DNA of 64,000 nt from an uncultured Gemmatimonadales bacterium (GTDB lineage Bacteria > Gemmatimonadota > Gemmatimonadetes > Gemmatimonadales > Gemmatimonadaceae): the NCBI GenBank assembly GCA_963850905.1, contig CAWKMU010000003.1, forward strand, positions 704,001 through 768,000. The letters run 5' to 3'. Below, in pieces: positions 15,918 to 63,515 of the stretch. The translations under genes were made by a program, and so were the position numbers. The notes under the pieces are model-generated. The model was not told the DNA's origin and ran no database searches. It saw only the letters and a list, made by a program, of their open reading frames with translations. Numbering within the stretch: position 1 is the first letter of the stretch; every line of letters starts with the position of its first letter.

Positions 15918-16117
15918 GGGTCAGGGGTCAGGGGAAAACCTGCAAGGCCGGTCACAGCGCACCGTGACCGGCCTTGGACCGGTAGGGGCGACGCTGTGCG
16001 TCGCCCGTTGGTGTGGTTGCGGTTGTCGTTCCCTGACCCCGCCTTTTGCCGCCCGACCCCTGGCCTCGCCGTTAGCGTCCGACCCCCCGCGGGTGGGGGC
16101 GACGCCATGCGTCGCCC
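15918..16117 (+). repeat. Modular intergenic element with REP, plus a second REP
   Basis: GGGGTCA array, hairpin 15944-15975, REP 15982-16006, GTTG linker and TGACCCC; variant REP at 16093-16117. Confidence 0.9.
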
Positions 16118-16185
16118 GCGGACTGCCCGCGCCGATCCGGTGGTGTCCGACACCGCGCGGCACCATCCCCGGGGATCGCGTCAAA

Positions 16186-17535
16186 TCACGCGAGAGAATC
16201 CCGACTTTTCGATGAGAGTCCGAGGCTGCGCAAGAGGAGCAGGACTCCAGCGGCGCAGAGCGCGAGACCGGCCACCCCGAAAAAGGTGATGCTCATGCCG
16301 CCGGTGGTGTCTTTGAGCTTGCCGGCGATTGCAGGTCCGAGAATACCACCGAAGTTGCCGGCGACACTCACGAGCGCAATGCCGGCAGCAGCCGCGGTCC
16401 CACTCAAGATCATCGGCGGAATGCACCAGAAGGGGCCGAAGACGGAGCATTGCGCAATCGACGCAATCGCGAGGCCCACCACCGGCCCCCACGGACGCGG
16501 CAACAGCGCAGCGCTCGCGTAGCCCGTCGCGATGAGCACCGCGCTCAGCGCGGGATGAAAAAACCGCTCGTTGGCCCGGTCGGAGCTCGCGCCACCGACG
16601 AGCATCCCAATGGCGGCGAGCACGCCGACCGCGCTGATGATCAAGCCGGTGACGAGGTTCGTCGAATGGAGTGCGTCGCGGATGACGATGGGTGCCCAGA
16701 AGAAATACACATACCCACTGAGCAGGACGCAAAACCACACCACCGCGACGAGATAGATGATCGGGTTGCTGAGGACTCGCCCAAGATCCTGCCGCCACGT
16801 GCCGCGCTCTCCGGTGTGTTCGCTCGAGATCCGCTGGGTAAGCCAGAGCCGCTGCTCATCCGAAAGCCACCGCGCATCATCGATCCGGTCGGGCAGATAT
16901 ATCAAGACCGCGATCCCGAGGAGCACCGCGGGGATGCCCTCGATCAGGAAGAGCCACTGCCAGCCCTGCAGGCGAAACGCCCCGTTGAGCCCCAGGAGCA
17001 ACCCGCCGAGCGCGCCACCCACAGCAAAGGAGAGCGGAACCGCCATCATGAACCGGGCGACGGCTCGGGCGCGGTGCGCTGCAGGAAACCAACCACCGAG
17101 GTAGTACATGATCCCGGGGAGGAAGCCCGCTTCCGCAGCGCCCAGGATGAATCGGAGCACGTAGAACTGGATCGGCGTTCGGACAAACATCATCGCCGTC
17201 GCGATCACACCCCAGCTGATCATGATGCGTCCGATCCAACGTCGCGCGCCCACCCGAGCGAGGATCAGATTGCTCGGAACATCGAAGAGACAGTAGCCGA
17301 CGAAGAACACGCTCGCGCCGAACCCGTACACGGTCGCGCTGAACTTGAGGTCGCGGTTCATCGTCAACGCCGCGAGCGCGACGTTGGACCGATCGAGATA
17401 GTTGACGATGTAGAGGGTGAACAAGAACGGGAGGAGCCGCTGGCTGACGCGACGCATCGTCGCGCGTGCCAGCTCCGAGTCGCCCTGGGTGTCGGCTCCT
17501 GTCGCGGGGACCGCTACCGCGATGCCGGAAGACAT
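16186..17535 (-). CDS. MFS transporter (anion:cation symporter family, TtuB-like)
   Basis: NYLDRSNV, VPSNLILARVGARRW, GAAEAGFLPG and GWQWLFLIEG motifs. Confidence 0.92.
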   Translation of the reverse strand: MSSGIAVAVPATGADTQGDSELARATMRRVSQRLLPFLFTLYIVNYLDRSNVALAALTMNRDLKFSATVYGFGASVFFVGYCLFDVPSNLILARVGARRWIGRIMISWGVIATAMMFVRTPIQFYVLRFILGAAEAGFLPGIMYYLGGWFPAAHRARAVARFMMAVPLSFAVGGALGGLLLGLNGAFRLQGWQWLFLIEGIPAVLLGIAVLIYLPDRIDDARWLSDEQRLWLTQRISSEHTGERGTWRQDLGRVLSNPIIYLVAVVWFCVLLSGYVYFFWAPIVIRDALHSTNLVTGLIISAVGVLAAIGMLVGGASSDRANERFFHPALSAVLIATGYASAALLPRPWGPVVGLAIASIAQCSVFGPFWCIPPMILSGTAAAAGIALVSVAGNFGGILGPAIAGKLKDTTGGMSITFFGVAGLALCAAGVLLLLRSLGLSSKSRDSLA

Positions 17536-17695
17536 GGTCGTCTGGGGTCGAGTGTAAAGCGATCGCCCCCGCACCGGAGCGCGCGCTCCCATCATGTGCT
17601 TGCGCAGTGATGGGCACAAGGCACGGGCAGTCGCTGTCTGCCGTCGCTGCGTTACTCGCTCGACCGCTCTGGCGACTATGCGCGATCAGGCGCGA

Positions 17696-17826
17696 TACAA
17701 ATCGAAAGGCCGGTCACGGTGCGCTGTGACCGGCCTCGGACCGGTAGGGGCGACGCATTGCGTCGCCCGCTGTTGTCGTTGCGGTTGCAGTTACCCCAAA
17801 TCCCAAACCCCAAACCCCAGACCCGC
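17696..17826 (+). repeat. Modular intergenic element with REP
   Basis: ACAAATCGAA linker, hairpin 17707-17736, REP 17744-17768 and CCCCAAA heptamers. Confidence 0.9.
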
Positions 17827-17834
17827 CCTTGGCG

Positions 17835-19277
17835 TCACGGCTGCGCGGCTGTCTTGCCGGCCACCGGTCTCGCACCCGGCGGCCCATGATCCCAGTCCTG
17901 CGCGCTCGAGATGTTCGGCATCCCCCAATCTTCGCCATTCCAGCCGTTGAACCCATCGAGCTTGAAGAACCAGGCGCCGGTGTTGGAGTCCGTGATCATG
18001 ATGAGCCCGTCGGTGTTTCGCACCATCACCCCGAACGCGCCGTTGTACACGCTCTGACCGGAGAAATCCGGCGTGCCGCCATAGCCCGAGTTGTGCGTGC
18101 ACTCACAGGTGTAGTACCAGCCCTTGGTCCTCGGGTGCGCCGGATCCTGCATGTTGAAGATCTGCAGCCCGTCCTCGTAGGCCGACACGAACACGTACGG
18201 CCAGCGGACTTCGTGGTTGTGGGCGAGATCGTTCCAGTCCGCATTCCACACCGCCACAGGCTGCGTGATCGCCTGCACCTTGCCCTCGAGCCCCGGGCGG
18301 AGATCGAAGATACGCAGCGGCGCCCACTGATACTCCGTCTCCGTCACCGCGAAGTTGCCGTCGGGCGTCGGCGTGAACGTGTGGCCCCACGCGATCCCGG
18401 CAGGTCCGACGATCGAGGTGATGAGCTTCGGCTCTTCCGGCTTGCGTGACATCGTAGACGTAGTACCCGCCACCGCCCGCGCCGTAGAACTTGTCCTGCG
18501 CACGTCGCCGGATCGTAGCCCACGTAGAAGTCGTGGTATCCTTGCAGCAGGATCTGCACGTTGGCAAATCCGGGCAGCACCTCGCCGCGCGCGTTGTTGG
18601 GCGGGACGGGGACCGTGCCGATCAGCTGGTGGTCCGTATCGCCCGCGAGCACCTTGTCCATGTCGTAGACGTTCGCGACGTTCGATGTCGTCGTCGTGAA
18701 CAGCAGCACGCGCCCGTCCGAGTGCTTGTACGCGAACAGGTTGTGGAATCCGCCCGGGGTCTCCGGTGCGCGGATGCGCGCCACGACTTTGACCTTGCTC
18801 GTGTCCGGCAAGCCCGTGACATCGAAGATGATCGCGCCGAGGTCGGCGTCCGGCGTGCCCTGCGCGAACTGGATGCATACGGCGACGTAGTACCGCCCGT
18901 GCAGCTTGAAGTACTTGGCGCGGAGCCCGCCGAGTCCCCGGTGCAGGCTCACGTTCTCGATCTGCCAGCGGTACAGCACCTTCACGTTGTTGAGATCGTG
19001 CAGGTCGATGATCGGAGAACCCGGCCCGTTCGCGCGACTGGGCGACATACGCGTACGGCCGCGACAGCTCCTGCTCCAGATCTGCATCCGTCACACGGAA
19101 ATAACCGCCGAGCGGGACGTGCGAAACGAGATGCACGTTCGAGCTGCCGCCAACCTTGTCGGGCAGGCCGCCATCGGGTGGCGGCGGGGCGCCGGGGTGT
19201 TGGGCCACCGCGCCCAATGCCGCCGCCATCAGGCCGGCCGCCAGTCCAACACGTAACCATCCTGTGTGCCTGCGCAT
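17835..19277 (-). CDS. Secreted LVIVD-repeat protein, three apparent frameshifts
   Basis: A continuous protein can be stitched from three frames (junctions near 19015, 18500 and 18445): IIDLHDL, IIFDVTGL, YVYDV, LRIFDL and HNHEVRWPY. Confidence 0.8.
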   Translation of the reverse strand: MRRHTGWLRVGLAAGLMAAALGAVAQHPGAPPPPDGGLPDKVGGSSNVHLVSHVPLGGYFRVTDADLEQELSRPYAYVAQSRERAGFSDHRPARSQQREGAVPLADREREPAPGTRRAPRQVLQAARAVLRRRMHPVRAGHAGRRPRRDHLRCHGLAGHEQGQSRGAHPRTGDPGRIPQPVRVQALGRARAAVHDDDIERRERLRHGQGARGRYGPPADRHGPRPAQQRARRGAARICQRADPAARIPRLLRGLRSGDVRRTSSTARAVAGTTSTMSRKPEEPKLITSIVGPAGIAWGHTFTPTPDGNFAVTETEYQWAPLRIFDLRPGLEGKVQAITQPVAVWNADWNDLAHNHEVRWPYVFVSAYEDGLQIFNMQDPAHPRTKGWYYTCECTHNSGYGGTPDFSGQSVYNGAFGVMVRNTDGLIMITDSNTGAWFFKLDGFNGWNGEDWGMPNISSAQDWDHGPPGARPVAGKTAAQP

Positions 19278-20298: not shown

Positions 20299-20388
20299 CT
20301 CGCCGCTGATGACGATGTTTGAGAGGCCGATGTCTCCTTTCTCCTTTCTGTACTTCTCCTTTCTATCGCGCGCCAGCGCGATCCGGGG

Positions 20389-20775
20389 GTGCTTGTGAAA
20401 GCATGGATGAGTGGCGCGATCGCCGGTCTCGCGGTCGTCGCTGTCGGATTTGGAGCGATGCACGCGCAGCAACCCGGACCACAATCCCAGCGCTTCCCGC
20501 AATTCGAGAACGACAATGTGAAGGTCTGGCGATCACTGGTCGTCCCCAACTCGCCCCTGACCCTGCATCGCCACGATCATCCCCGCGTGATCGTCGCCCT
20601 CAACGGCGGCACGATGAAGATCGAGGTGCAGAACGGCCCGACGGAGACGCACGTGTGGGAAACCGGTAAAGCCTACTGGCTGCCCGCCAACCCGCCCAAC
20701 ACGCTGCACGTCGATGTGAACGCCGGCGACAAGCCGATTGAGGTGATGGTGGTGGAGTTGAAGCATGAACATTGA
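20389..20775 (+). CDS. Secreted cupin-domain protein
   Basis: Signal peptide; FENDNVKV, LHRHDHP, HVDVN and VELK. Confidence 0.75.
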   Translation: MLVKAWMSGAIAGLAVVAVGFGAMHAQQPGPQSQRFPQFENDNVKVWRSLVVPNSPLTLHRHDHPRVIVALNGGTMKIEVQNGPTETHVWETGKAYWLPANPPNTLHVDVNAGDKPIEVMVVELKHEH

Positions 20776-20895
20776 GGCTGGACGCTAGACGCTGGACTCT
20801 GGACGCTAGAGACAAACCTCGGGGCCAGCGCAGTGCACCGCCGCTGGCCCCGAGGTTTCCTTCCAGCGTCCAGCGTCTAGCGTCCAGCGTCTAGC
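20776..20895. repeat. Mirrored T(G/A)GACGC heptamer arrays around an 8-nt-loop hairpin
   Basis: TGGACGC/TAGACGC array 20779-20810, hairpin 20814-20858 (loop AGTGCACC) and reverse-complement array 20862-20895. Confidence 0.9.
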
Positions 20896-22808: not shown

Positions 22809-23587
22809 CCGACAGATTCTCGCACCTCACGGGCATCATCCTGGATTGGGCGGGCACGATCGTCGATCACGGCAGCCTCGCGCCGGTCATCGCGATGCAA
22901 CGCGCCTTCGCAGCGGCCGGCATCGCCGTCACACCGGCCGAGATTCGTGCACCCATGGGGTTGCCCAAGAAGGAGCACATTCGTGCGATTGCACAGGCCA
23001 GGCACCTGGACGCCGATGTCGACGCCCTGTACGCCAGTTTCATCCCGCAGCAGATGGAGAGCCTCACGGCGCACTCGGATGTGATCACAGGCGTGAGCGA
23101 CACGATTGCGCGCCTGCGCGCACGCGGCCTCAAGATCGGATCGACGACAGGCTACAGCCGCGCCATGCTCGACTACGTGTTGCAGCAGGCACGCACGCAG
23201 GGCCTCGCGCCCGACTGTGCCCTCGCCCCGGAGGACGTCGGTGGAGGCCGGCCCATGCCATGGATGTGCTACGAAGCCGCGGTGCGGATGCGCGTCTACC
23301 CGCTCTGGACCCTGGTGAAGATCGGTGACACCGAGGCCGACATCGACGAAGGCCGCAACGCCGGCCTGTGGACGATTGGCGTCGCCCGCACAGGAAATGA
23401 GATCGGCCTCTCTGAGCGCGACTGGCACGCACTGGCCGCCGACCGCCAGGCCGCGCTCTTGGCGCTCGCCCGCGATCGTCTCCGTGCCGCGCGCGCCGAC
23501 TACGTCATCGACGCCGTCGCCGATGTGGAGCCGACGCTGGAGGCAATCGATGCGCGGTTGGCGCGCGGTGAAAGGCCGCACGGCTGA
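22805..23587 (+). CDS. phnX: Phosphonoacetaldehyde hydrolase (phosphonatase)
   Basis: DWAGTIVDHGS, PMGLPK (Schiff-base Lys region), GRPMPWM and KIGDT..DIDEGRNAG. Confidence 0.93.
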   Translation: MTDRFSHLTGIILDWAGTIVDHGSLAPVIAMQRAFAAAGIAVTPAEIRAPMGLPKKEHIRAIAQARHLDADVDALYASFIPQQMESLTAHSDVITGVSDTIARLRARGLKIGSTTGYSRAMLDYVLQQARTQGLAPDCALAPEDVGGGRPMPWMCYEAAVRMRVYPLWTLVKIGDTEADIDEGRNAGLWTIGVARTGNEIGLSERDWHALAADRQAALLALARDRLRAARADYVIDAVADVEPTLEAIDARLARGERPHG

Positions 23588-23766
23588 ACAGCGGGCCAGG
23601 GGTCAGGGGTCAGGGAACAAATCGAAAGGCTGATCACGATGCGCCGCGTCCGGCCTTGGGCCGGTAGGGGCGACGCATTGCGTCGCCCGTTGTTGTCGTT
23701 GCCGTTGTCGTTCCCTGACCCCTGACCCCGGACCCCGGACCCCGGACCCCTGGCCCCGCTGTTCAG
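23584..23766 (+). repeat. Complete modular intergenic element
   Basis: TIRs CTGAACAGCGGG / CCCGCTGTTCAG, GGGGTCA arrays, degenerate hairpin 23627-23656 and REP 23664-23688. Confidence 0.92.
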
Positions 23767-23899
23767 CCTTGGAAGGCATACACCAGAGGATCAAGGGGTC
23801 GGGATTGGCAGCACCTCGACATCCTAACTGATCGTGGCTTCGTTATGGTCTACTTTCTACTTTCTGCAGTTCGACTTTCTCTTGAATGCCCCGAGCGCC

Positions 23900-28429
<4,530 letters not shown>

Positions 28430-28467: not shown

Positions 28468-28666
28468 CGCGGGCGCTCCGCGCCCGAGAAAGTAGAACGA
28501 CAGAAAGTAGAGAGTAGAAGACGGCCGCACGCCGGGTCTGCGTGCCAACTGCCTCGCGGGCATGCGCTTTGCTTTCTGGGAAAGGAAACAGGGGCGGAAA
28601 GCAGACGGGAGTTGTCTACTTTCTACTTTCTGAAGGTCTACTTTCTCGGGCGCGCAGCGCCCGCAG
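28468..28666. repeat. Mirrored AGAAAGT heptamer arrays bounded by GNA-loop mini-hairpins
   Basis: Hairpins at 28470-28486 and 28647-28663 in inverted orientation; arrays at 28487-28520 and 28614-28646. Confidence 0.85.
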
Positions 28667-28930: not shown

Positions 28931-29045
28931 GACTCTTCTTTCTTCTTTCTTCTTTCTCCTTTCTCCTCTCCCCTTTCTCCTCTCCCCTTTCTACGGCCGC
29001 GCAGCGGCCGTTGTCGTCTCCTCTCTCCTTTCTCCTTACTCCTCT

Positions 29046-34067: not shown

Positions 34068-34143
34068 TGCGCGGGAGTGAAAGTGCGTGGTGCCAAGAGG
34101 ATCCCACTACCCGACGAACGGCGGACCCGCGGATAACAGGGCC

Positions 34144-34357
34144 GGGGCAAAGGGCAGGGTCAGGGGTCAGGGGTCAGGGGTCAGGGGTCAGGGGTCAGGG
34201 GTCAGGGAACAAATCGAAAGGCCGGTTGCAGCGCACCCTGATCGGCCTCGGACCGGTAGGGGCGACGCATTGCGTCGCCCGCCGTTGCCGTGGTATTGGC
34301 CGTTGTTGTCCCCTGACCCCTGGACCCTGACCCCTGGACCCTGGCGCCGCCGTTCAG
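34144..34357 (+). repeat. Modular intergenic element with expanded heptamer array
   Basis: Six perfect GGGGTCA at 34163-34204, hairpin 34219-34248, REP 34256-34280, inverse array, ending GCCGTTCAG. Confidence 0.92.
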
Positions 34358-34363
34358 CCACCC

Positions 34364-35448: not shown

Positions 35449-35526
35449 GAGACCAAAACGCTAACGAATCAGCCGCATTGGCGTCACTGCCCCGTCGAAG
35501 GACCCCTGACCCCTGACCCCTGCCTC

Positions 35527-37847: not shown

Positions 37848-38681
37848 CCGCGCGCGTCGTCCGCCTCGCGCACAGTCCGGACTCCGACGACGCGTTCATG
37901 TTCTACGCGTTGGCGGAAGGCAAAGTCGATACCGAGGGCGTGCAGTACGTTCACGAATTACAGGACATCGAGACTCTCAACCAGCGCGCGCGTCGCGCCG
38001 AGTTGGACGTGACCGCCGTCTCGATCCACGCGTACGCGTACCTGATTGACTCCTACGCACTGCTGCCGCACGGGGCATTCAATGGGAGACCGATACGGAC
38101 CGCGGCTCGTCGCGCGGGAGCCCCTGCGCCGAGCCGATGTGCGGGGACGGCGGATCGCGATCCCTGGCCCGCTGACGACCGCGTATCTGGTGCTGTCGCT
38201 GTATGAGCCCGACTTCATCGCCGTTCCGACGCCATTCGACCAAATCGAAGATGCGGTCGTCAACGGGGAAGCCGAGCTTGGCCTCCTCATCCATGAAGGC
38301 CAGCTGACGTACCGCGACCGCGGCCTGCACCTGGTCGCCGACATGGGCGAGTGGTGGTACGGCGAGACGGGGTTGCCGCTACCGTTGGGCGGCAACGTGA
38401 TCCGCAAGGATCTGGGACCCGCCCTCATGGCCCAGGTCTCCCGCCACCTGCGCGAGAGCATAGCCTACGGCCTCGCCCACCGCAGCCAGGCGCTCGACCA
38501 CGCGATGCAATACGCGCGTGGCCTGGACCGTACGAAAGCCGACACGTTCGTCGGGATGTATGTGAATGAATGGACCCTCGACTACGGCGACCGCGGACGC
38601 CAAGCCGTGCGCGAGCTCCTCGCCCGTGGCGTCGCGAGCGGCATAGTACCGGGCCCGGCTCGGGTGGAGTTTGCGGACTAG
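37844..38681 (+). CDS. mqnD: 1,4-dihydroxy-6-naphthoate synthase (MqnD family), frameshift near 38079
   Basis: [38 protein letters not shown] and MYVNEWT. Confidence 0.88.
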
Positions 38682-38687
38682 AAACAA

Positions 38688-38795
38688 GGGATCAGGGATC
38701 AGGGGTCAGGGAACCAACCTGAGGGCCAGCCACGGTGCACCGTGGCTGGCCTTTCGTTTCCTTCCCTGACCCCTGACCCCTGATCCCTGATCCCT
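38688..38795. repeat. REP-less modular element
   Basis: GGGATCA/GGGGTCA array, perfect palindrome GGCCAGCCACGGTGCACCGTGGCTGGCC at 38724-38751, inverse array. Confidence 0.9.
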
Positions 38796-38923
38796 TGCCG
38801 TTACAGGCGTTTCCCCGCGGGCGTCCTTGTTTCGTGACCCCGTACGCGCAATCCGTTCGCCGCGACCGCGCGGCGCGACCGCTGACGCCTGTGTCCTCCG
38901 CGGCGACGGTGAGTGCGGAAGCC

Positions 38924-41353
38924 ATGCATGCCAGCGACGCGCTCAGTCATGTGGCGCGACGCCTTGCCGCGACGGGCACCGACCTCAGTGCCGCGATGGC
39001 GCTCCTCGCCAACAATGGCCTGACGTTGCTCGGCGCCGAAGGCGCGGTCGTCGCTCGCATTGACGGCGACCAGTTCCGGGTCGAGGCGGCGGCTGGGTCG
39101 CTGGTCCCGATGGTCGGGTTTCAGGCGCCGCTCGCCGGCTCGCTAGCCCAGGACGCGTTGACCCGGGGGCAGGCAGTCCTGGTGAATCAGGTCCAGGGCG
39201 ATGCACGCGTGGACGTGCATTTCTTGACACCCTTCAGCCCCCGCCACGTCGCCATCGCCCCGCTCGTCGCCGGGCATGAGCCGTGCGGGTTCCTGCTCGT
39301 CCTCAATAGCGAGCGCGGTGGCTTTACCACGAGTGACACCATGGTGCTGCAGCGCCTCGCCGATTTCGGCGCCATCGCACTCGCCCAGGTCACTGGCTGT
39401 CGGCACGCGGAAACAGCGGCCCTCGATGAGGCGTGCCTGTCCCACGTGGTGCGCGAGATGAATCAGTCGCTGGAGCTCGAACGCGTCGTATCCCTGCTTG
39501 CTCGTCACGCCGCTCGGCTCTCCCACGCGCGCGGCGCGCGCGTGATGCTCGTCGAACCCGCCGGCCTGTCGATCGTGGCTGCCGTCGGCGACGCAGCGGA
39601 TGCCGTCGGCACCACCGTCGATCCGGCCGGCCAGTTCGCGCAGCGGGCGATCGAGCTCCTGGCAGGCGTGCGGACGTCGGACCTGCGGTCGTACGCGGAT
39701 GTCTGGCAGCGCACGCCGGCCGCACGTGACGACACGCTCGGCGAAGGCCGTCCCAATGGCGTCGCAGTGCCGCTCATCGTCGGCGGCCGCGCGATCGGGG
39801 TGATCGCCGCGTTCGGTAACGAGAGTCGCGACTTCGATGAGCGCGACCAGTCGATCCTGCAGAGCCTGGCCGACCATGCGGCGATCGCCGTCGAGAACGC
39901 GCGCCTCTATCGCGCGGCCGCGTACATGGCCCGTCATGCCAACGTCCTCGCGGCCTCCGCGCGCGCACTGGCCGTCAACCCGACGCCCGAAGCGGTCATG
40001 GCCGGCATCTCACGCGTGGCCTGCACCGCACTCGGCGCCGATGGATTCAGCGTGTTCCTCGCCAACCCGACCACACGTCGCGTCGATCTCGCGCACACCG
40101 AAGGCGTCGGCACGGGGATCATCAACTGGACCCCCAATCGGTTCTGGTCCATGGCCGCGGGCGAGGTCACCACATCGGGCGTGCCGGTCTACGTGTCGGA
40201 TGCCGAGTCGCTGTATCACACGCTCAATCCGACGGAGCTCCTGGCCTATCGCGCGGCACGCATGCGGTCGATCGCATTTCTCCCGCTGCCGAGCGACGGG
40301 GCGCAACACGGTGTGCTCGTCCTCCGCTTCCTCACGCGGCACGGCTTCGACGATGCCGAACGCCACCTCCTGACCGACTTCGCGACGCAGGTAGCGGTCG
40401 CGATCCGCAATGCCCAGCTCGCGGAAGCCGAACGCGCCAGCCGTGATCGCGAGGGGGCGTTGAAGGAGTCGATGCATCAGACGGAAAAACTCGCGGCGCT
40501 TGGCGAGCTCGTGGCTGGCGTCGCGCACGAGTTGAACAATCCGCTGACCGGCATCTCGACCTTCGCGCAGCTGCTCCTCGAGGATCCGCTTTCGGAGGAG
40601 CAAAGCGAATCCGTACGAGAGATCAAACGCGAGGCCGACCGCGCGGTGGGCGTGATTCGCGAGTTGCTGACCTTCTCGCGCAAGACCGGGCCGCGACTCA
40701 TCGCGGTCGATCTCAATGCCCTCGTCCAGCATACCGTGCGGCTCCGCGCATACTCGCTGCAGTCAACGGGCATCGAAGTTCGCACCGAGCTCGACCCGGT
40801 GCCGCCGACGGCGATCGGAGACGATCAACGGTTGCAGCAGGTGATGCTCAACCTCGTGGTGAATGCGGAATACGCCATGCACCGCGCCCCGACCCGTGTG
40901 CTCACGATTCGCACCACGCGGCAAACCGTGGGCGGGATTCCGCGCGTCGTCATCGACGTGATGGATACCGGGACGGGCATGACGCCCGACGTCCTCCCGC
41001 ATATCTTCGAGCCCTTCTTCACCACCAAGCCCGCCGGGGTGGGGACGGGCTTGGGCCTGAGCGTGAGCCACACGATCATCCAATCGCACGGCGGCACGAT
41101 CGACGTGCAAAGCACACCGGCCGTTGGCACGACATTCACCGTGGCACTTCCGGAGTACGTCGCGAGTACTAATGGACGGGTCCTGGCACCCCCATCCGCA
41201 GCGGTTGCGCGCCCGTCTGGCGCCGCCGCCCAGCTCACGACCGCGCCTGCAACAGACGCCCCGAGACACGCGGCTCCCACCGCGCCGACCGGGGAGACAC
41301 CGCGTGGCGCGCCGACACCATCGCCCACGAAACCTCCGCATGTCGACCGATAG
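38924..41353 (+). CDS. Multi-GAF sensor histidine kinase
   Basis: Three GAF-like domains; H box AHELNNPL, N box NLVVNA, DTGTG, FFTTK and GTGLGL. Confidence 0.95.
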   Translation: MHASDALSHVARRLAATGTDLSAAMALLANNGLTLLGAEGAVVARIDGDQFRVEAAAGSLVPMVGFQAPLAGSLAQDALTRGQAVLVNQVQGDARVDVHFLTPFSPRHVAIAPLVAGHEPCGFLLVLNSERGGFTTSDTMVLQRLADFGAIALAQVTGCRHAETAALDEACLSHVVREMNQSLELERVVSLLARHAARLSHARGARVMLVEPAGLSIVAAVGDAADAVGTTVDPAGQFAQRAIELLAGVRTSDLRSYADVWQRTPAARDDTLGEGRPNGVAVPLIVGGRAIGVIAAFGNESRDFDERDQSILQSLADHAAIAVENARLYRAAAYMARHANVLAASARALAVNPTPEAVMAGISRVACTALGADGFSVFLANPTTRRVDLAHTEGVGTGIINWTPNRFWSMAAGEVTTSGVPVYVSDAESLYHTLNPTELLAYRAARMRSIAFLPLPSDGAQHGVLVLRFLTRHGFDDAERHLLTDFATQVAVAIRNAQLAEAERASRDREGALKESMHQTEKLAALGELVAGVAHELNNPLTGISTFAQLLLEDPLSEEQSESVREIKREADRAVGVIRELLTFSRKTGPRLIAVDLNALVQHTVRLRAYSLQSTGIEVRTELDPVPPTAIGDDQRLQQVMLNLVVNAEYAMHRAPTRVLTIRTTRQTVGGIPRVVIDVMDTGTGMTPDVLPHIFEPFFTTKPAGVGTGLGLSVSHTIIQSHGGTIDVQSTPAVGTTFTVALPEYVASTNGRVLAPPSAAVARPSGAAAQLTTAPATDAPRHAAPTAPTGETPRGAPTPSPTKPPHVDR

Positions 41354-42479
41354 ATCCAGCGACCGACCGCTTCGACCAGGTTCCGTTCCGCCCCCTCGGG
41401 ACTCGTTGCAATCGCAGCCCGTCGAGCGCGACCCGTCGGCCCCGCGTGTGCTCGTAGTCGATGATGAAGAGCTCATTACGCGGGCTTTGGCGCGGTATCT
41501 GGGCACACGCGGCTACGAAGTGGAGACCGCGAGCTCCGGCCACGCCGCCCTCGAGGCGCTCCGGCGCACTCGATTCTCCGTGATGCTGTGCGACGTGCGC
41601 ATGCCGGGCCTCTCCGGCCTCGACGTCGTGCCGCGCGCCCTCGAGATCGATCGCGATCTCGCCATCATGATGTTGACCGGCGTCAACGATGCGCCGACCG
41701 CAGCCACTGTGCTCGCGACCGGCGCGATGGACTACCTGCTCAAGCCCGTCGAGTTGGTGGAGTTGCAGCAAGCCATCGAGCGAGCCCTGCATCGCCGCGA
41801 GCTCGAGATCGATCGGCGAACGGTCGATCGCTTGATCAAGGAGGAAGTGACTGCGCGCACCGAGGAGCTCGAGCGCGAGAAGCAGTCGCTCGGCGCAATG
41901 TCTGTCGCAACGGTCGAAGCATTGGTGAACGCGATGGAGGCGAAAGACGTCTATCTGCGCGGCCACTCACAGCGAGTCTCCGACCTCGCGGGCTCGATCG
42001 CGGAGGAGCTGCACCTCGACAAGCAGACCATTGCGCACGTGCGGATCGCCGCGCGCATACACGATATCGGGAAGATCGGGATCCAGGAGTCCGTGCTGAA
42101 CAAACCCGGTCCGTTGACGCGCGAAGAGTTCGACCACGTGAAAGAGCACGTTCGCATCGCGCTCGACATCCTCGCGCCGCTCAAGTATCTGGGTCCCGCG
42201 ATCGACTTCGTGGCCGATCATCACGAGCACTGGGACGGCCAGGGCTATCCGCGTGGCAAGGCCGGCGAATCGATCTCGATCGGTGGTCGCATCTTGGCCG
42301 CAGCGGATGCCTACGACGCGCTGACCTCCACGCGCGCCTACCGCCCGGCCCGCCGACCGCGCGAGACCGTCGACTATCTCGCCGCTCAGGCGGGCGACCT
42401 GCTGGACCCGCGCGTGTACGAAGCGTTGACGACGGTTCTAAAAAAGCGGGCGTCAGGGGAGACGGTGGTGCAAGGCTGA
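41340..42479 (+). CDS. Response regulator with HD-GYP phosphodiesterase domain (RpfG-like)
   Basis: REC domain (VVDDE, DVRMP, KP); HDIGK and HHEHWDGQGYP. Confidence 0.95.
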   Translation: MSTDRSSDRPLRPGSVPPPRDSLQSQPVERDPSAPRVLVVDDEELITRALARYLGTRGYEVETASSGHAALEALRRTRFSVMLCDVRMPGLSGLDVVPRALEIDRDLAIMMLTGVNDAPTAATVLATGAMDYLLKPVELVELQQAIERALHRRELEIDRRTVDRLIKEEVTARTEELEREKQSLGAMSVATVEALVNAMEAKDVYLRGHSQRVSDLAGSIAEELHLDKQTIAHVRIAARIHDIGKIGIQESVLNKPGPLTREEFDHVKEHVRIALDILAPLKYLGPAIDFVADHHEHWDGQGYPRGKAGESISIGGRILAAADAYDALTSTRAYRPARRPRETVDYLAAQAGDLLDPRVYEALTTVLKKRASGETVVQG

Positions 42480-42524
42480 ACTGCGGGGTCAGGGAAGACC
42501 CCAGACCCCAAACCCGCAGTTCAG
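42476..42524. repeat. Minimal (empty) modular element between convergent genes
   Basis: Perfect 12-bp TIR CTGAACTGCGGG / CCCGCAGTTCAG enclosing only heptamers; the left TIR contains the HD-GYP stop. Confidence 0.85.
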
Positions 42525-42525
42525 C

Positions 42526-43137
42526 CTACAACGATTTCCCCGCTAGCAACCACGATGTCACGCGTGCCACCCGCGCCCCCTGCACCCGGGCGACCGTGAG
42601 ATCGGCCTCCGTCGCGCCGCCCGTGCCGGTCGTGCTCGTGGCGCCATATGGGCTCCCGGCCGTGAACACGGCGCGGTCGGTGTATCCGGGCGGGACGAGG
42701 ATCATCCCCAGATTGGCCATGACGGTCATCATCGAGAACAATGTGGTCTCATGACCGCCGTGCGGCGTTTGCACGGTCGTGAACGCTGCACCGACTTTGT
42801 CGACGAAGGCCCCCTTGGCCCACAGCGCACCCGCTTGGTCGAGTACGAGTTTGAGCTCCGCCGATATGACCCCAAACCGCGTCGGCGTCCCAAGGATCAA
42901 CGCATCATGCTCCACGAACTCCTGCACGCCGCTGAGCGTCTCGTACTGCGCCGCGAGCCGGTCTCGACTCTCTTTCCATTTCGGTTGTGCAGCGATGACG
43001 TGCTCGGGCGCGACGTCGACGACGCGGCGAACCGTCACGGACGTCGATGGGACGGCGCGCGCGCCTTCGGCGATCGCATCCGCGAGCAGAGCCGTGTGGC
43101 CGGTTCGGCTGTAGAACGCGACGAGAACTCTTGGCAT
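42526..43137 (-). CDS. wrbA: NAD(P)H:quinone oxidoreductase, WrbA family
   Basis: FYSRTGHT, GTPTRFG, HGGHETT and GSPYG motifs. Confidence 0.92.
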   Translation of the reverse strand: MPRVLVAFYSRTGHTALLADAIAEGARAVPSTSVTVRRVVDVAPEHVIAAQPKWKESRDRLAAQYETLSGVQEFVEHDALILGTPTRFGVISAELKLVLDQAGALWAKGAFVDKVGAAFTTVQTPHGGHETTLFSMMTVMANLGMILVPPGYTDRAVFTAGSPYGATSTTGTGGATEADLTVARVQGARVARVTSWLLAGKSL

Positions 43138-43908: not shown

Positions 43909-44167
43909 CGGCCGGGATTCGGAACTCGGGATTTGAGACTCGGGCACCAACCAGAAAGGGCCGGTCGCGGGGGTACTGCGACCGGCCCGTTTGTGCCCTC
44001 CCGAATCCCGATTCCGCTGTTTGGCGCCACCGCCAGTGTCGCGACACCAGCACTGTGCGCCGCCGTGGACCGGTAGGGGCGACGCATTGCGTCGCCCGCG
44101 GTTGTCGTTGCGGTTGTCTCCTTTCTCCTTTCCGGCGTTCTCCTTTCTCGGGCGCTTTAGCGCCCGC
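43904..44167 (+). repeat. Compound element: GGGATTC-type mirrored heptamers with hairpin, then REP and mini-hairpin
   Basis: Hairpin 43958-43988, REP 44073-44097, TCTCCTT tract and CGGGCGCTTTAGCGCCCG at 44149-44166. Confidence 0.85.
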
Positions 44168-44209
44168 GGCACTATCGCGACATCAGCCCAACACTGCTAA
44201 GATTGCCCC

Positions 44210-46585: not shown

Positions 46586-46788
46586 CCGGAACGGGCGCTT
46601 CGCGCCCGTAGAAAGGAGACGGAGAACGGAGAAAGTAGACAACGACCGGCCTGCCTAGGACCGGCAGGGGCGACACACCGCGTCGCTCTTCCGCACCGTC
46701 CGACAAATGCCTGGGGCTACGCATTCGCCCCAACGACACCATCATCACCTGACGTACAAAACACGACGCCCCCACCCGGTAACAAATC

Positions 46789-48750: not shown

Positions 48751-48751
48751 G

Positions 48752-48865
48752 GAGGGTGACGGGTGAAGGGTGACGGGTAACGGGTAACTGCAACAACAGA
48801 GAGGGCCAGTCGCGGTGCGCTGCGACTGGCCCTCTGCGTTTTCACCCGTCACCGTTACCCGTCAC
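48752..48865. repeat. REP-less modular element with GGGTGAC/GGGTAAC heptamers
   Basis: Array 48752-48788; hairpin GAGGGCCAGTCGC-GGTGCGCT-GCGACTGGCCCTC at 48801-48834; inverse array 48842-48865. Confidence 0.9.
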
Positions 48866-48909
48866 TTTGTCTTTCCGCTAGCTTCCTACCCAATCTCTCC
48901 CCCACTGCC

Positions 48910-50287: not shown

Positions 50288-50420
50288 CTCAAACGGCGGG
50301 GTCGGGGGTCAGGGACGAGGGGTCAGGGAACGGCAACCAACACCGTCAGCCAGATCACTGCACGCCGCGGCTGGCCGTGGCAATTTGTTCCCCTAACCCT
50401 GACCCCTATCCCTGTCCCTG
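50288..50420. repeat. Degenerate REP-less modular element
   Basis: CTCAAACGGCGGGG start, GGGGTCA-type array, decayed hairpin near 50347-50376, inverse array. Confidence 0.75.
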
Positions 50421-50582
50421 AAACATCCAGGCTCGGGCACGGTATAACCCATTGGCCGCACTCTCCCGAGGCCCTTCGGGGCCTGTTGGAGGCCGCCTGG
50501 GCAAGTCGGCGACGGGCCGAGTTACGTTTCGGTGCAACCGGTGCGCAAGCCCTTCGCGCCTGGGAGCACACTTGGAGGACAC

Positions 50583-50866: not shown

Positions 50867-50938
50867 GAACAACACAGAGGGCCAGTCGCGACCGACCGCG
50901 ACTGGCCCTCCGTGTTGTTGCAGTACCCGTCACCCCGC
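50867..50938. repeat. 8-nt-loop hairpin family member
   Basis: GAGGGCCAGTCGC-GACCGACC-GCGACTGGCCCTC at 50877-50910 with AACAACAC/GTGTTGTT extension. Confidence 0.85.
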
Positions 50939-51461: not shown

Positions 51462-51495
51462 ACGAGGCCGCAAGCATCAACACGACAAAGAAACA

Positions 51496-51540
51496 CCGAG
51501 GGCTAGTGACAGCACTGCGTCACTAGCCCTCGACTTTTCC
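51496..51540 (+). terminator. Hairpin between convergent genes (8-nt-loop family), probable terminator
   Basis: GAGGGCTAGTGAC-AGCACTGC-GTCACTAGCCCTC at 51498-51531 followed by GACTTTT. Confidence 0.65.
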
Positions 51541-52843: not shown

Positions 52844-53068
52844 CTGAACTGCGGGGTCAGGGGAACGACGGCTGCGACCGCAAGAAAAGGGCGGCCTGAA
52901 GGCCGCCCCTACATGTTGCTGCACACGGTGCTGGTTTCGAACTCGTCGACATGCTCATCGATCGTCGGGGACGCTCCGAAAGGTGACCATTCACGCCGAC
53001 ATGTAGGGGCGGGCTTCAGCCCGCCCGTCCTTTTAGCCGTTTGCCGATGCCGTGCCCCCGATCCCCTA
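52844..53068. repeat. Modular element carrying an inverted pair of a second GTAG-REP family
   Basis: CTGAACTGCGGGGTCAGGG start; REP2 at 52889-52912 (-) and 53003-53026 (+). Confidence 0.85.
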
Positions 53069-53344: not shown

Positions 53345-53348
53345 CGGG

Positions 53349-54011: not shown

Positions 54012-54268
54012 GCTAAACGGAGGGGTCAAGGACCAGGGGCCTGGGGTCAGGGACCAGGGCTCAGGGGTCAGGGGAACTCGAAAAGCCGGCCACGTCGCAC
54101 TGTGACCGGCCTCGGACCGGTAGGGGCGACACATTGCGTCGCCCGCCGTAAGGGCCCGGCCAACGAAACCGGCCAAGGACCGGTAGGGGCGACGCGTTGC
54201 GTCGCCCGTCGTTGTCGTCGCGGTTGTTGTTCCCTGGCCCCTGACCCCTGAACCCCGACCCCTGACCT
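54012..54268 (+). repeat. Modular element with two tandem REPs
   Basis: Heptamer array 54021-54074, hairpin 54084-54111, REPs at 54120-54144 and 54183-54207, inverse array. Confidence 0.9.
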
Positions 54269-56081
54269 ACCTGGCCGCCAACCCTTGCCCCGCCCCAAAG
54301 CCCCCGATCGAGACCGGCAACCGCCCGACAATGCTATTCACTCCCGCGAGCGCGTCAGCCGCCGCCACCTGCGAAACCGGGAGACCACCCCACGCCACCA
54401 GGTACGTCGGGATCGCGGGGACCTGCGTGAGGAAGTAGGGGTTGCCGAACGCGATCACGACGGGTCGCGTGTGGCGAGTCGCCAGTTGCGTGACGAAGCT
54501 CGTGATCAGCGCCGGAGCATTCAGGGTCGTTGCATGGTCGCTCTGCCCAATGTACACGCCGACGACGGTCACGGCAGCCGAATCCGCCTCCTCCAGCACG
54601 CGCAATGGCTTGTCGCCCGGGTCATCAGCATCAATGAATTCCATGCGCGTGTCCCGGAAGCTCTTCCGCAGCTCCGTCGCGAAGGCCACCCCCGCCGCCA
54701 GGTCGGGGCGATGCGCGATCGTCACGCTCAACACGCGCGCGCTAAGCGGAATCGTCAACGGCACCGAGTGGAGCGAATCCTTCACGAGCGTGATGGATCG
54801 ATTGGCGACCGTCTGCGCAAACGCCTTGTTGGCCGAGTCACCGACGACGGCGCGTACTGAATCCACGTCGACGAGGCGGTGCCGATCGAGACCCATCGCC
54901 GCCTTGAGATCGAGGATGCGCTTGACCGCGCTGTCGACCCGGCCCTCGGAGTAGCGGCGCTCCGTGACCCCCGCCACGATCGCGTCGATCGCCTGGTCGA
55001 CATCGACCACCTGGATCAACACATCGGCACCGGCCGCGACGGCACCCTTGATGGACTCGTCGGTGCCGAAGTGGTCCAGGAGCGCACGCATGTCCATGGC
55101 GTCGGACACGACGAGCCCCGAGAAGCCCAGCTGGTGCCGCAGGAGACCGGTGAGAACGGGGCTCGACAACGTGCCGGGCGTGCCCGTCGAATCGAGCGCG
55201 GGCATGGAGCCATGAAACGTCATCATGGCTCCGACGTGCGACGCAATCGCCGCCTCGAACGGGACCAGCTCGACGCTGTCGAGCCGCGCCCGCGACGCAC
55301 TGACGACGGGCAGGCCCAGATGCGAGTTGACGTCCGTGTCGCCGTGCCCGGGGAAATGCTTCCCCGTCGCGATCATCCCGTGTTCCTGGACGCCGCGTAT
55401 GAACGCGCGCCCGAACGCCGCGACCATACGCGGGTCTTCCCCGTACGACCGGGTGTTGATGACCGGGTTATTCGGATTGTTGTTGACGTCGAGAACCGGC
55501 GCAAAGTCGATGTGGATCCCGAGTGCGCGTCCCTCGATCGCCGTGATCCGACCTTCCTCGTACGCCAACGACGTGTCCCCCGTCGCCCCAAAAGCCATCT
55601 GTGGCGGAAACACCGTCGCCCCACCCAGATCAATCGCGTTGGGGACGAAGTACCCGCCGCGCGCGCGCATCCCGGCCCCGTACTCGAGGTCGCTCGATAC
55701 GAGCAGCGGGAGCGGCGCGAGGCGCTGCAGCGCGTTGAGCTTGAGCGCGATCTCGTCGGGCGACCCGACTGACATCAGGAGCCCGCCGACGCCATCGTCT
55801 GCCACCGCGTGCCTCAGCCTTCGCCACGCCAGCGCATCGGTCGTGACATAGTCACCGAACAGGTTGGGCCACACCATCTGCGCCGCCTTCTGCCGCAGCG
55901 TCAGCGTCGCCAGCACGGAGTCGGACCAGCCCGCGCGAGGCGGCCGCGCGAGAGCGGTCGGCCCCCCGACCGGCGTCGGTGGCGTACCGGGTCCTTTGTG
56001 GTGGCTGGTGCATGCCGCAGGTGCGAGTGCCGTCAGAGCGGCGAGGCCCGCACAGGTGACTCTCGAGCGACCCTGTCGCAT
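54267..56081 (-). CDS. GH3 beta-N-acetylhexosaminidase (two-domain); start uncertain
   Basis: KHFPGHGDTDVNSH, FAPVLDVN, SDAMDM and FGNPY. Confidence 0.92.
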   Translation of the reverse strand: MRQGRSRVTCAGLAALTALAPAACTSHHKGPGTPPTPVGGPTALARPPRAGWSDSVLATLTLRQKAAQMVWPNLFGDYVTTDALAWRRLRHAVADDGVGGLLMSVGSPDEIALKLNALQRLAPLPLLVSSDLEYGAGMRARGGYFVPNAIDLGGATVFPPQMAFGATGDTSLAYEEGRITAIEGRALGIHIDFAPVLDVNNNPNNPVINTRSYGEDPRMVAAFGRAFIRGVQEHGMIATGKHFPGHGDTDVNSHLGLPVVSASRARLDSVELVPFEAAIASHVGAMMTFHGSMPALDSTGTPGTLSSPVLTGLLRHQLGFSGLVVSDAMDMRALLDHFGTDESIKGAVAAGADVLIQVVDVDQAIDAIVAGVTERRYSEGRVDSAVKRILDLKAAMGLDRHRLVDVDSVRAVVGDSANKAFAQTVANRSITLVKDSLHSVPLTIPLSARVLSVTIAHRPDLAAGVAFATELRKSFRDTRMEFIDADDPGDKPLRVLEEADSAAVTVVGVYIGQSDHATTLNAPALITSFVTQLATRHTRPVVIAFGNPYFLTQVPAIPTYLVAWGGLPVSQVAAADALAGVNSIVGRLPVSIGGFGAGQGLAAR

Positions 56082-56592: not shown

Positions 56593-56763
56593 CTGAACGG
56601 CGGGGCCAAGGGTCAGGGGCCAGGGATCGGGGAACAAAATCGAAAGGCCGGTCACAGTGCATAGTGACCGGCCTTGGACCGGTAGGGGCGACGCATTGCG
56701 TCGCCCGTTGTTGTCGTTGCGGTTGTCGTTCCCTGACCCCTGACCCCTGACCCCGCCGTTCAC
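56593..56763 (+). repeat. Complete modular intergenic element
   Basis: TIRs CTGAACGGCGGGG / CCCCGCCGTTCAC, hairpin 56644-56675 and REP 56682-56706; the right TIR contains the desaturase stop. Confidence 0.92.
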
Positions 56764-60426: not shown

Positions 60427-60447
60427 CTCAGTGAGCTAACCACCAAC

Positions 60448-61550: not shown

Positions 61551-61602
61551 GCCCTCAACCCTCGGCCGCTCAGTAGACCCACCGACCGCAGGAGGATATG
61601 GC

Positions 61603-61992
61603 ATGTCGAGTATGAGTCTCGTGCAGCTGACCATCACGATGACCGAGCTGTCGGTCTTCGTGTTGGCTGGCTTCCTGGGCTACCAGATCGTGACCAAGGT
61701 CCCGCCCCTCGTGCATACGCCGCTCCTGTCGGCCACCAACGCGATCTGCGGCATCTCGATCGTCGGCGCCCTGGTGGAAGCGGGCGCGCATCAGACGATG
61801 ATCAGCACCATCCTCGGCGTCCTCGCGGTCACCGCCGCGATGATCAACATCGTTGGCGGGTTCCTCATGACCGACCGGATGCTGAACATGTTCCGGCCGA
61901 AGCAGAAGACGCCGCCGGCCGCGCCAGCCGCCGCATCCGGCCTCTCGCCCGACGCCGTCGCCGGCAACGGGCGCGCACCCGGAGCCGACTGA
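61603..61992 (+). CDS. pntAB: NAD(P) transhydrogenase alpha subunit part 2
   Basis: GGAGG RBS; VHTPLLSATNAI and NIVGGFLMTDRMLNMF. Confidence 0.9.
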   Translation: MSSMSLVQLTITMTELSVFVLAGFLGYQIVTKVPPLVHTPLLSATNAICGISIVGALVEAGAHQTMISTILGVLAVTAAMINIVGGFLMTDRMLNMFRPKQKTPPAAPAAASGLSPDAVAGNGRAPGAD

Positions 61993-61995
61993 ACA

Positions 61996-63380
61996 ATGCT
62001 ACGCACGGTCTTCATCGAGTCGACGTACCTCGCCGCGTCCATCCTGTTCATCCTAGGCATGCGCAGTATGACGCGCGCCGAAGGCGCGCGTCGCGGCATG
62101 CAGCAGGCCATGGTCGGGATGTTGTTGGCGATCATCGGCACCCTGTTCAACCACAACATCATCGATTTCCGCTGGATCGCCGTCGGGCTGATCGCCGGCG
62201 CCGTGCTCGGGTATCCGCTGGGCGCGATGGTGCAGATGACCGCCATCCCGCAGGCGATTGCGGTATCACACATGTTCGGCGCGATTGCCGCGACGTTGGT
62301 CGGCGTCGCCGAGTACTACAATGCCGCCGGCCATGTGTCCTCCGGCATCATGACTGGCACTCGGATTCGAGACACTGCTCGGGTCGCTCACCGTCACCGG
62401 CAGCTTCATGGCGTTCGGCAAGCTGCAGGGCATCGTCATTGATCGGCCATTCACGTTCAGGGGACAGAATGCGCTGAACCTGTCGCTGTTTGCCGTGACG
62501 CTCGCGATCTTCGGCTACCTGGTCGTGACGCCCACGCATCCGCCACTCTTCTACGCGATGCTCGGGTTGTCGCTGCTGATCGGCGTCTCCATGGTGCTTC
62601 CGATCGGCGGCGCGGACATGCCGGTGGTGATCTCCCTGCTCAATTCGTACGCGGGCCTCGCGTCCGCCGCGACCGGATTCGCCATCGGCAACAACGTCTT
62701 GATCATCGCCGGCGCGCTCGGCGGCGCCTCGGGCTTCCTCCTGTCCATCCTGATGAGCAAGGCGATGAATCGGTCGTTCGCCAACGTCCTGTTCGGCGCG
62801 TTCGGCACGCCCGCAGTCGGCATCGGCGACCAAGACGGCGACCGGCCTCACCGTCCACCCGATTAGTGCGGAGGACGCCGCGATGCGACTCGCTTACGCC
62901 GGCGAAGTCATCATCGTTCCGGGCTACGGCATGGCCGTCGCCCAATCCCAGCACCAGGTGCGCGAGCTCGCGGAGCAGATCGAAAAGCGCGGCGGCACGG
63001 TGAAGTACGCGATTCACCCCGTCGCCGGTCGCATGCCGGGACACATGAACGTTTTGTTGGCCGAAGCGAATGTGCCCTACGAGCGCCTGTACGACATGGA
63101 GGAGATCAACGCGGAGTTCGATCACGCCGATGTCGCACTCGTCATCGGCGCCAATGACGTCGTCAATCCCGCAGCGCGGACTGACCGCGCGAGCCCGATC
63201 TACGGCATGCCAATCCTCAACGCTGATCACGCCAAGAGCATCATCGTCCTCAAGCGCGGCATGAACCCCGGCTTCGCTGGAATCGAGAACGAGTTGTTCT
63301 ACGATCAGAAAACCAGCATGCTGTTTGGCGATGCGAAGGCGAGTTTGACGAAGCTCGTCGCGGAAGTGAAGAACGTCTGA
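61996..63380 (+). CDS. pntB: NAD(P) transhydrogenase beta subunit, two apparent frameshifts
   Basis: IGGADMPVVISLLNSY, AMNRS, PGYGMAVAQ and HPVAGRMPGHMNV across three frames (junctions near 62355 and 62830). Confidence 0.92.
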
Positions 63381-63385
63381 CGTAC

Positions 63386-63515
63386 GGGGTTGGGGGGTTG
63401 GGGTTTAGGGTAACGCAATAACACCGAGGGCCAGCGACGGTGATCCGTCGGTGGCCCTCGGTTCTTTTGCAGTTACCCCAAACCCCAAACCCTAAACCCC
63501 AGACCCGCAGTTCAG
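63386..63515. repeat. REP-less modular element with GGGGTTT-type heptamers
   Basis: G/T array 63387-63411, hairpin 63424-63461 (loop GGTGATCC), CCCCAAA array, ending CCCGCAGTTCAG over a stop codon. Confidence 0.88.

Follow-up and report, generated by a model that had tools for sequence, protein, structure and literature searches.

The intergenic spacers of an uncultured Gemmatimonadales bacterium (genome G000), an assignment supported by close protein matches, are occupied by short palindromic elements whose two arms are inverted tandem arrays of heptamers. We analysed these elements in a stretch of 64,000 nt, hereafter the window (G000, contig C3, 704001-768000), in the remainder of the assembly (4.49 Mb, 82% complete) and in related DNA from soil metagenomes, above all that of G004, G001 and G002, which share 91%, 83% and 75% nucleotide identity, respectively, with G000; one further genome, G016, was counted only in the tallies of relative identity, TIGR02436, Y1 transposase and core hairpin. 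The elements consist of three layers: a core hairpin that is found genus-wide, heptamer arms of several families and two ordinary families of repetitive extragenic palindromes (REPs). Their sites persist between related genomes, the occupants are exchanged for or nested within one another, and the arm units recur around or beside genes for four-helix-bundle proteins, in one clade exactly at the 3′ ends of tRNA genes. We favour, at roughly even confidence, the reading that the elements are gene-less, non-autonomous derivatives of PF05635/TIGR02436 (Avd-like) heptamer cassettes that insert at gene-end hairpins.

Runs of period 7 number 315 in G000, compared with 4 of period 8 and 43 each of periods 6 and 9. 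Arrays of the same family in purine-to-pyrimidine order lie less than 300 nt apart in 186 of 203 cases, those in the opposite order in 2 of 163, and a shuffled control yielded 3 arrays per Mb; together, these observations exclude chance. The genome holds 140 paired elements (74 of family A, 33 of B, 32 of C and 1 of D), plus many halves, with the purine arm first and the pyrimidine arm second. When genes were called with a simple codon model of our own making and stricter patterns were applied, 4.8% of 608 arrays fell within coding sequences, and hence 95% are intergenic. The outer end of an arm lies a median of 11 nt from the stop codon that it faces, the distances peaking in 7-nt register with that codon, and arrays are commonest in convergent spacers (111/427, versus 190/2106 co-directional and 53/426 divergent ones).

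At least five families of arm unit coexist: A (GGGGTCA/GGGGTTT), B (GACGYTR), C (GARAGKA), D (GGGTRAC) and a GGGATTC variant. As G-tracts are confined to the A and D units and missing from B and C, the elements as a class are not G-quadruplex-capable arrays. A preliminary description of the window had listed 14 loci and assigned them one chassis order, running from terminal inverted repeat (TIR) through arm, hairpin, optional REPs, a GTTGTC linker and reverse-complement arm to a second TIR. All 14 are present with the nesting given, the order itself being less uniform: the copy at 17696 has no left arm; the GTTGTC linker is seen, by eye, mainly on REP-bearing copies; and the short TIR is a feature of family A only (both ends in 19, one end in 30 and neither in 25 of 74 elements; one end in 2/33 of B and 0/32 of C). 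Family C, with terminal mini-hairpins of its own (28469-28664 and several halves), was absent from that list. Six of the listed loci fold with z-scores of -5.9 to -13.9, 0/200 shuffles being as good. Rfam gave no match in the window, and independent short-read contigs match positions 38490-39070 with 0 differences.

A degenerate pattern for the core hairpin detected it in all 10 congeneric genomes, at 3-33 copies each, and in 1/21 other genomes; the copies sampled in arm-poor species have no arms. Across 14 window copies, the core displays 20 two-sided changes versus 9.2 on shuffling (0/500), in a test biased in its favour because the structure was drawn from the same 14 copies. The core is preceded by A-rich and followed by T-rich sequence, armed cores having a mean of 4.9 T in the following 14 nt and many naked cores no clear T-run. 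A one-base bulge is kept in 42/60 B cores, in either orientation, and cores show no orientation relative to transcription.

The two arms of an A or C element have a common mix of units. The order of the units is not mirrored between the arms (within-element shuffle, p 0.23-1.0), which rules out that one arm was copied from the other by fold-back, and G-U versus A-C mismatches in the arms reveal no strand bias. The two results weaken, for the arms, the structured-RNA half of the earlier proposal of a 'mobile or structured-RNA' family, only the core being seen to covary; its mobile half is upheld by the empty, collapsed, swapped and nested alleles described below. No target-site duplication was seen by eye in 30 copies with two TIRs, nor in alignments of filled with empty sites. 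The terminal hairpins of C elements meet the arm at offset 0 in 80/88 cases. GN(N)A loops, which form stable DNA mini-hairpins, are found at C ends on the pyrimidine strand in 54/100 cases versus 5 on the purine strand. A and B elements without a REP show no polarity to replication or transcription; the weak polarity of C elements (p 0.02) was not counted, four of the copies behind it being near-duplicates linked to tRNA genes. Single arms on the left replichore are mostly pyrimidine-on-plus (86:22 at 0-0.98 Mb of C3, 22:3 beyond 3.1 Mb of C3 and 39:5 on contig C4, counts in which some singles are pairs with one sub-threshold arm; 58:16 in the left part of G004), and those right of the origin are balanced (33:32).

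Site persistence and occupant exchange

The comparison with G004 (assembly 93% complete) covered 880 kb with 618 orthologues of 94% median identity, and 521 of 531 syntenic spacers were scored. Arrays are present in both genomes at 85 spacers (60 with the same family, 25 not), in G000 only at 36, in G004 only at 45 and in neither at 355. By their flanks, 50 of 56 G000 elements could be mapped, and the same site in G004 carries an array for 43/50, compared with 130/521 spacers overall. The G004 occupant is a pair of the same family at 23 of these sites, a pair of another family at 10, a half of the same family at 7 and a half of another at 3, with none at 7; 13/50 elements thus face another family. 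In the reverse direction, where 80 of 83 G004 elements were mappable, an array lies at the same G000 site in 58/80. Within same-family pairs, interiors are similar above the null in 2/7 A, 1/10 B (3 by eye) and 6/6 C comparisons, and the cores of swapped elements are unrelated (p 0.88; few sites). The occupancy of 43/50 sites by elements whose A and B interiors are mostly unrelated indicates that the sites persist and that their A and B occupants have mostly been exchanged.

The 14 loci of the preliminary description follow this pattern, G004 having B in place of another family at 6, a nested C at 3, nothing at 1 and the same family, whole or as a remnant, at 4. At 63386, three arm families surround similar cores across four genomes. 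Among the alignments listed, many 'empty' alleles are collapsed scars that retain the outer ends, and some are clean; the comparison of empty with filled sites, put forward as a check on the element, therefore did find empty alleles and sites that vary across relatives. At a few sites the arms have changed around a retained interior, and the ratio of GACGCTR to GACGTTR in the B unit spectrum is 144 to 109 in G000 and 14 to 378 in G004. Retained interiors with changed arms, taken with this genome-wide shift, imply that conversion at the level of units also acts. Swapping of arms around a resident core as a general rule is ruled out for family swaps; among same-family sites it is seen at a few. 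Long insertions at 13330, 15905 and 35448 in G004/G001, considered as possible transposases, are ordinary metabolic or regulatory genes.

Sites of such fidelity might instead be maintained by the host. The elements would then be 3′-end RNA elements (bidirectional terminators or stabilisers) under selection at fixed sites, altered by slippage and ectopic gene conversion, with no transposition. Their proximity to stop codons (median 11 nt) and abundance between convergent genes fit this proposal, as do a core that covaries, occurs armless throughout the genus and has A-rich and T-rich flanks, the genome-wide B unit shift and, at some sites, altered arms with the interior kept. However, the arms are not mirrored in register and lack a sense-strand G-U bias, and the cores are unoriented to transcription. 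Conversion, moreover, requires homology, yet A has been swapped for C, C elements are found nested and some empty alleles are clean, and the C family has crossed phyla together with a gene. On balance we consider host selection at fixed sites unlikely to explain the elements.

Four-helix-bundle genes and tRNA 3′ ends

The four-helix-bundle family TIGR02436 has matches in 23/31 genomes. At the 30 best-scoring of about 100 such matches, a strict test found the gene enclosed by inverted heptamers at 13/30 loci versus 10/856 cross-locus controls; by eye, several further loci are enclosed by 8- or 9-mers, and 8/9 additional loci have enclosing arrays. Arm units of 8, 9 or about 10 nt instead of heptamers occur at L058, L060, L061, L062 and L260. 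The gene-bearing copies in relatives share arm units with the gene-less elements: B arms enclose the gene in G001, of the same genus (locus L043), A arms enclose it in G133, of the same order (L262), and C arms accompany it at 67/75 loci. In G001, a third variant of the B unit, with C as its last base, is found both in the gene-less orthologue of window position 42470 and in the gene-bearing L043. The larger, gene-enclosing copies anticipated by the preliminary description thus exist in relatives, with four-helix-bundle genes; G000 itself has no gene-bearing chassis, no same-family arm pair spanning 320-1500 nt there, and no reverse transcriptase (RT) was found in the five genomes covered. Enzyme-family searches covered RT, IS110 and Y1; IS110 gave no match in G004 or G002 and a marginal one in G000, and GxxExxY (TIGR04256) was not found in G000.

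G000 has four four-helix-bundle hits, each after a complete C chassis; three stand behind a clear 3′ half of tRNA-Ile and three are truncated. These genes and fragments all lie at 13.5-46.7 kb of C3, an arrangement that suggests islands integrating repeatedly at tRNA-Ile, of which an intact gene lies at 72.7 kb, and thereby duplicating chassis and gene start. A scan with this C clade gave 80 of 103 confirmed loci, mostly from Planctomycetota and of 61-76% identity, of which 75 were scored, five having too little upstream DNA. C arms lie upstream of the gene in 67/75 (as a complete pair in 59/75), compared with 0/64 control windows and 0/26 other four-helix-bundle loci. A closing C arm follows downstream in only 2/75, and C arms are therefore beside, not around, the gene. 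At L206, L209, L212 and L199 a second C chassis follows the gene in direct orientation, L209 also having a short tRNA-end copy in front.

A tRNA or tmRNA gene lies within 500 nt of 57/75 C-clade loci. At the 50 loci listed, the element starts exactly at the tRNA or tmRNA 3′ end with a hairpin of 12-32 nt; the host genes are mostly tRNA-Pro, with all three anticodons seen, and also include those for tRNA-Ala, -Ile, -Met and -Arg and tmRNA. The outer pair of the hairpin uses the terminal A of the tRNA, and at L191, where CCA is encoded, the stem extends over CCA. An open reading frame of at least 105 codons is present at 75/80 loci, no second gene recurs downstream of the 80 (largest cluster, 4 loci), and Rfam found only tRNA at five cassette loci. 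The same placement is seen in G000, where C ends follow 6/48 tRNA genes versus 21/3111 stops of open reading frames (odds ratio 21, p 2e-6). The C-clade protein matches PF05635 and PDB entry 2GSC (XCC0516), with a phmmer E of 3.8e-11 to 2GSC.

Elements of the window and their REP cargo

In the window (features marked + lie on the plus strand; the others carry no strand), most A elements comprise arms, core and one copy of the REP family REP1. That at 15910..16075 has as its G004 counterpart an A terminus in which a C element is nested; that at 23584..23769 has both TIRs, the left one including the upstream TGA stop, and is absent from G004 and G002; that at 34137..34359 (7+5 units) is represented by short remnants only in G004 and G001; and that at 56593..56762, again with both TIRs, faces B in G004 and G001 and A-like arms around a REP1 doublet in G002. 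The element at 54012..54270 has a core and two REP1 copies, its site holding an A remnant in G004 and a complete C amid an A remnant in G001. At 17696..17830, a core and REP1 are followed by a right A arm of GGGGTTT type, with B elements in G004 and G001. The A termini at 52844..53068 surround an inverted, REPIN-like doublet of the second family, REP2; G004 has B there, G001 an A with a long left arm and REP1, and G002 a near-empty site.

Other A elements have no REP. Arms and core at 38682..38796 correspond to B in G004 and G001 and to a 13-nt empty allele in G002, and those at 63386..63515 (GGGGTTT type) to B in G004 and G001 and to GTGGCTR arms in G002. A collapsed A at 42473..42527, with TIRs, few units and no core, is matched by an A half in G004, B in G001 and a GGGATTA-type element in G002; a degenerate A at 50288..50425 by a B half in G004 and a GGGGCTA-type element in G002; and a right A arm stands as a half at 35500..35520 (+). 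B arms and a core at 20774..20895 face a B with other units and another core in G004, a collapsed scar in G001 and a C half in G002. GGGATTC-type arms with a core lie at 43911..44015. D arms with a core, at 48752..48866, are replaced in G004 and G001 by a C nested centrally in an A remnant; a core with a residual D arm lies at 50868..50930, and a naked core at 51489..51537 is kept in G004, G001 and G002.

The complete C element at 28469..28664 has terminal mini-hairpins, GARAGKA arms and an interior of about 100 nt that is orthologous in G004. C half-elements are found at 13691..13737 (+; pyrimidine arm and terminal hairpin), 20326..20379 (+) and 23843..23900 (+), in tandem at 28941..29045 (+; a different complete element in G002) and, with its terminal hairpin, behind a right A arm with TIR at 13389..13483 (+). 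At 44060..44171 (+), REP1 and a tail precede a C half that bears its terminal hairpin; in G004 and G001 a complete C lies behind an A remnant. A C left end (terminal hairpin and arm) followed by a degenerate REP1, at 46590..46700 (+), is kept in G004 and G001, the site being empty in G005 and G008.

REP1 and REP2 are GTAG hairpins that flank genes of their own for RAYTs (REP-associated tyrosine transposases). RAYT1, at 366..1019 (+), has the HUH and the Y motif within a single open frame and matches NF047646 with an E of 1.8e-18, below the curated cut-off. It lies between a REP1 tandem array of 153-nt units on its left (1..400), in which the 5′ context is the same as in the REP1 cargo of the chassis, and another on its right (1024..1321, +), and is the predicted cognate enzyme of that cargo. 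REP2 flanks a second RAYT at 875 kb of C3. Heptamer arms were seen beside neither RAYT. RAYT1 was not found at the matching place in G004 or G001, where the flanks were not mapped, and with its counterparts L170, L171 and L175 it appears to occupy different chromosomal places in G000, G004, G001 and G002; RAYT genes are usually described as stationary, which makes a shifting place unusual.

Only 27/324 REP1 and 10/116 REP2 copies have arms on both sides, and 114/139 pairs contain no REP at all (A 50/74, B 32/33, C 32/32). The earlier inference that REPs target the element or travel with it thus applies to some of them, most REPs lying outside paired chassis; REPs are secondary passengers with their own RAYTs. 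Since two inverted GTAG REPs as a unit make up only some of the cargo (52844), the chassis itself is not a REPIN or BIME. The ratio of plus to minus REP1 loci is 112 to 4 left of dnaA, 5 to 20 at 0.98-2.0 Mb and 30 to 5 at 2.0-3.05 Mb. This polarity follows the replichore whatever the gene orientation and flips back near 2.1-2.3 Mb, the fourfold-site skew being near zero at 2.0-3.05 Mb; across the whole C3 contig (125-56694 in the window), the density of REP1 loci left of dnaA is several times that on the right. Our literature search found no paper on such replichore polarity of REP1. Separate from dnaA at 1.0 Mb, a 684-codon frame at 2846103-2847974 of C3 has two DnaA-like ATPase domains.

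We also considered whether RAYT (HUH Y1) transposases mobilise the whole chassis in a REPIN-like manner, with the four-helix-bundle gene as a passenger. This proposal stays alive through RAYT hits in the four arm-rich genomes, there being none in G005 or G007. The REP1 loci are polar to the replichore, and the outer ends of A and B often start with CT, at which RAYT cleaves. C terminal hairpins, in addition, resemble IS200/IS605 ends as depicted in the accessible part of PMC6006769. By contrast, most paired elements have no REP, REP-less A and B elements have no polarity, no gene recurs downstream of the C-clade loci, RAYT included, and arms are few in G003, G006, G008 and G009 despite hits to Y1 transposases. 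A RAYT-driven chassis accordingly appears improbable to us.

Origin and known relatives of the elements

If the elements are gene-less derivatives of PF05635 cassettes, insertion would take place at hairpins that closely follow a stop codon or the 3′ end of a tRNA, and new copies would replace earlier ones or nest in them. We infer that the protein takes part in movement and that its substrate is DNA: a pentamer, by binding to the arm arrays, would draw the two ends of the element to each other, and insertion would act on single-stranded DNA hairpins and duplicate no target. Copies with internal deletions would persist as palindromic scars and be re-used. RAYT1 may have placed REP1 at the foot of the core, the composite then being copied as a unit.

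Several observations weigh against a derivation from PF05635 cassettes. The four-helix-bundle gene was found inside A or B arms in neither G000 (4 hits) nor G004 (2), all hits belonging to the C clade, and uniform B copies nevertheless number 45 in the 880 kb of G004. Arm density does not follow from gene number in samples of 33-80 kb from 18 genomes, those with 9-13 genes having 3-7 runs per 100 kb versus 34 in G000 and G004. Outside clade C, the coupling of unit to protein is loose: the nearest neighbour has the same unit in 10/14 cases, and L043 and L046 are 58% identical yet have different units. We know of no catalytic function for PF05635, and no excision or circle was seen in four DNA contig sets, which are too shallow for excision. 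Site fidelity, core covariation and the 6/6 orthologous C interiors also fit selected, fixed 3′ hairpins.

A route through RNA, in which the stem is excised by RNase III as in 23S rRNA intervening sequences (IVSs) and re-inserted as cDNA with an Avd-like accessory, is very improbable: insertion points do coincide with RNA 3′ ends, and, from the accessible parts of the papers, PF05635 and the Avd protein of diversity-generating retroelements are homologues (PMC10053308) and the Coxiella IVS has a PF05635 gene behind heptamer repeats and an RNase III cut (PMC4990558), but G000, G004, G001, G002 and G005 (completeness 66-93%) have no RVT_1 match, the arms have no strand bias and GN(N)A loops favour DNA hairpins.

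The preliminary description took the architecture to be undescribed, which holds only in part, paired heptamer arrays having been published for Xanthomonas (PMC4692102) and Geobacter (PMC2700814); here and below, published work is represented by its accessible portions. Rehm et al. (2015, PMC4692102) described intergenic arrays of about four units, GGGAATC in Xanthomonas and GGGGA(C/T)T in Nostoc. In Xanthomonas the G-rich strand lies at most 50 nt from a stop codon, there are 70-75 inverted pairs per genome and the array site is kept in a sister species (83%); no general association with mobile elements was reported in the portions seen. The present elements resemble that class in their tandem 7-nt units, intergenic position, purine- or G-rich strand behind the stop and inverted pairing. 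They differ from it in having at least five coexisting unit families, two of them without G-tracts, occupant exchange and nesting, a common core, REP passengers and a link to a four-helix-bundle gene. In Geobacter metallireducens, opposite-strand pairs of 4-5-unit hepta- or octanucleotide arrays at variable distance form classes 1-3 (Aklujkar et al. 2009, PMC2700814); insertion sequence (IS) elements are found inserted at a constant distance from these pairs, and the arrays were read as sites of global regulators. Exchange at orthologous sites, a core, REP cargo and a partner gene were not found described in the accessible portion of that paper, unlike here. TAACTGA arrays have been described by MacGregor (PMC4679880).

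With IVSs that carry an open reading frame for S23p (Coxiella burnetii, PMC4990558), the elements share the protein family, terminal inverted repeats and heptamers before the frame. Unlike these, they are gene-less, dispersed and placed between protein or tRNA genes, not in rRNA, and the C clade has a complete hairpin beside the gene, at tRNA and tmRNA 3′ ends. GTAG REPs, REPINs/BIMEs and RAYT REPtrons (PMC3733652, PMC3116915, PMC6006769) are matched by the REP1/REP2 cargo only, whereas the chassis has no GTAG tag and mostly no REP. Bacterial miniature inverted-repeat transposable elements (ERIC, Correia/NEMIS, RUP and Nezha; PMC3733652) are likewise short, gene-less and palindromic, lie near coding ends and have empty alleles; the present elements differ in lacking target duplication, in having a short TIR in family A only and in ending in tandem heptamers or C hairpins. 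A literature search, with thin coverage of subscription journals, turned up no account of exchanged occupants, of heptamer arms as a general trait of PF05635 genes or of the tRNA-end clade. What appears new is the persistence of sites with exchange of their occupants and the placement at tRNA ends; the paired heptamer arrays themselves are known.

More tentatively, PF05635 cassettes may constitute a minimal class of mobile element, duplication-free, whose sole protein is an Avd-like pentamer that reads heptamer arrays and places them at DNA hairpins behind genes, with one clade site-specific for the 3′ ends of tRNA and tmRNA genes in several phyla and with gene-less offspring. If such offspring continually supplant one another at shared sites, they would account for the 7-mer excess long known from bacterial intergenic DNA. 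Heptamers are an over-represented and unexplained repeat length in the intergenic DNA of bacteria, and PF05635 is a very large protein family with no assigned function. The arrays described here are turned over element by element at fixed sites where genes end, and the C clade offers a testable pair, one protein clade and one arm sequence with one exact target, the tRNA 3′ end, in a phylum, Planctomycetota, that has culturable members. If the proposal is true, site-specific landing behind tRNA genes with a single protein of 120 residues would be a new mechanism of insertion.

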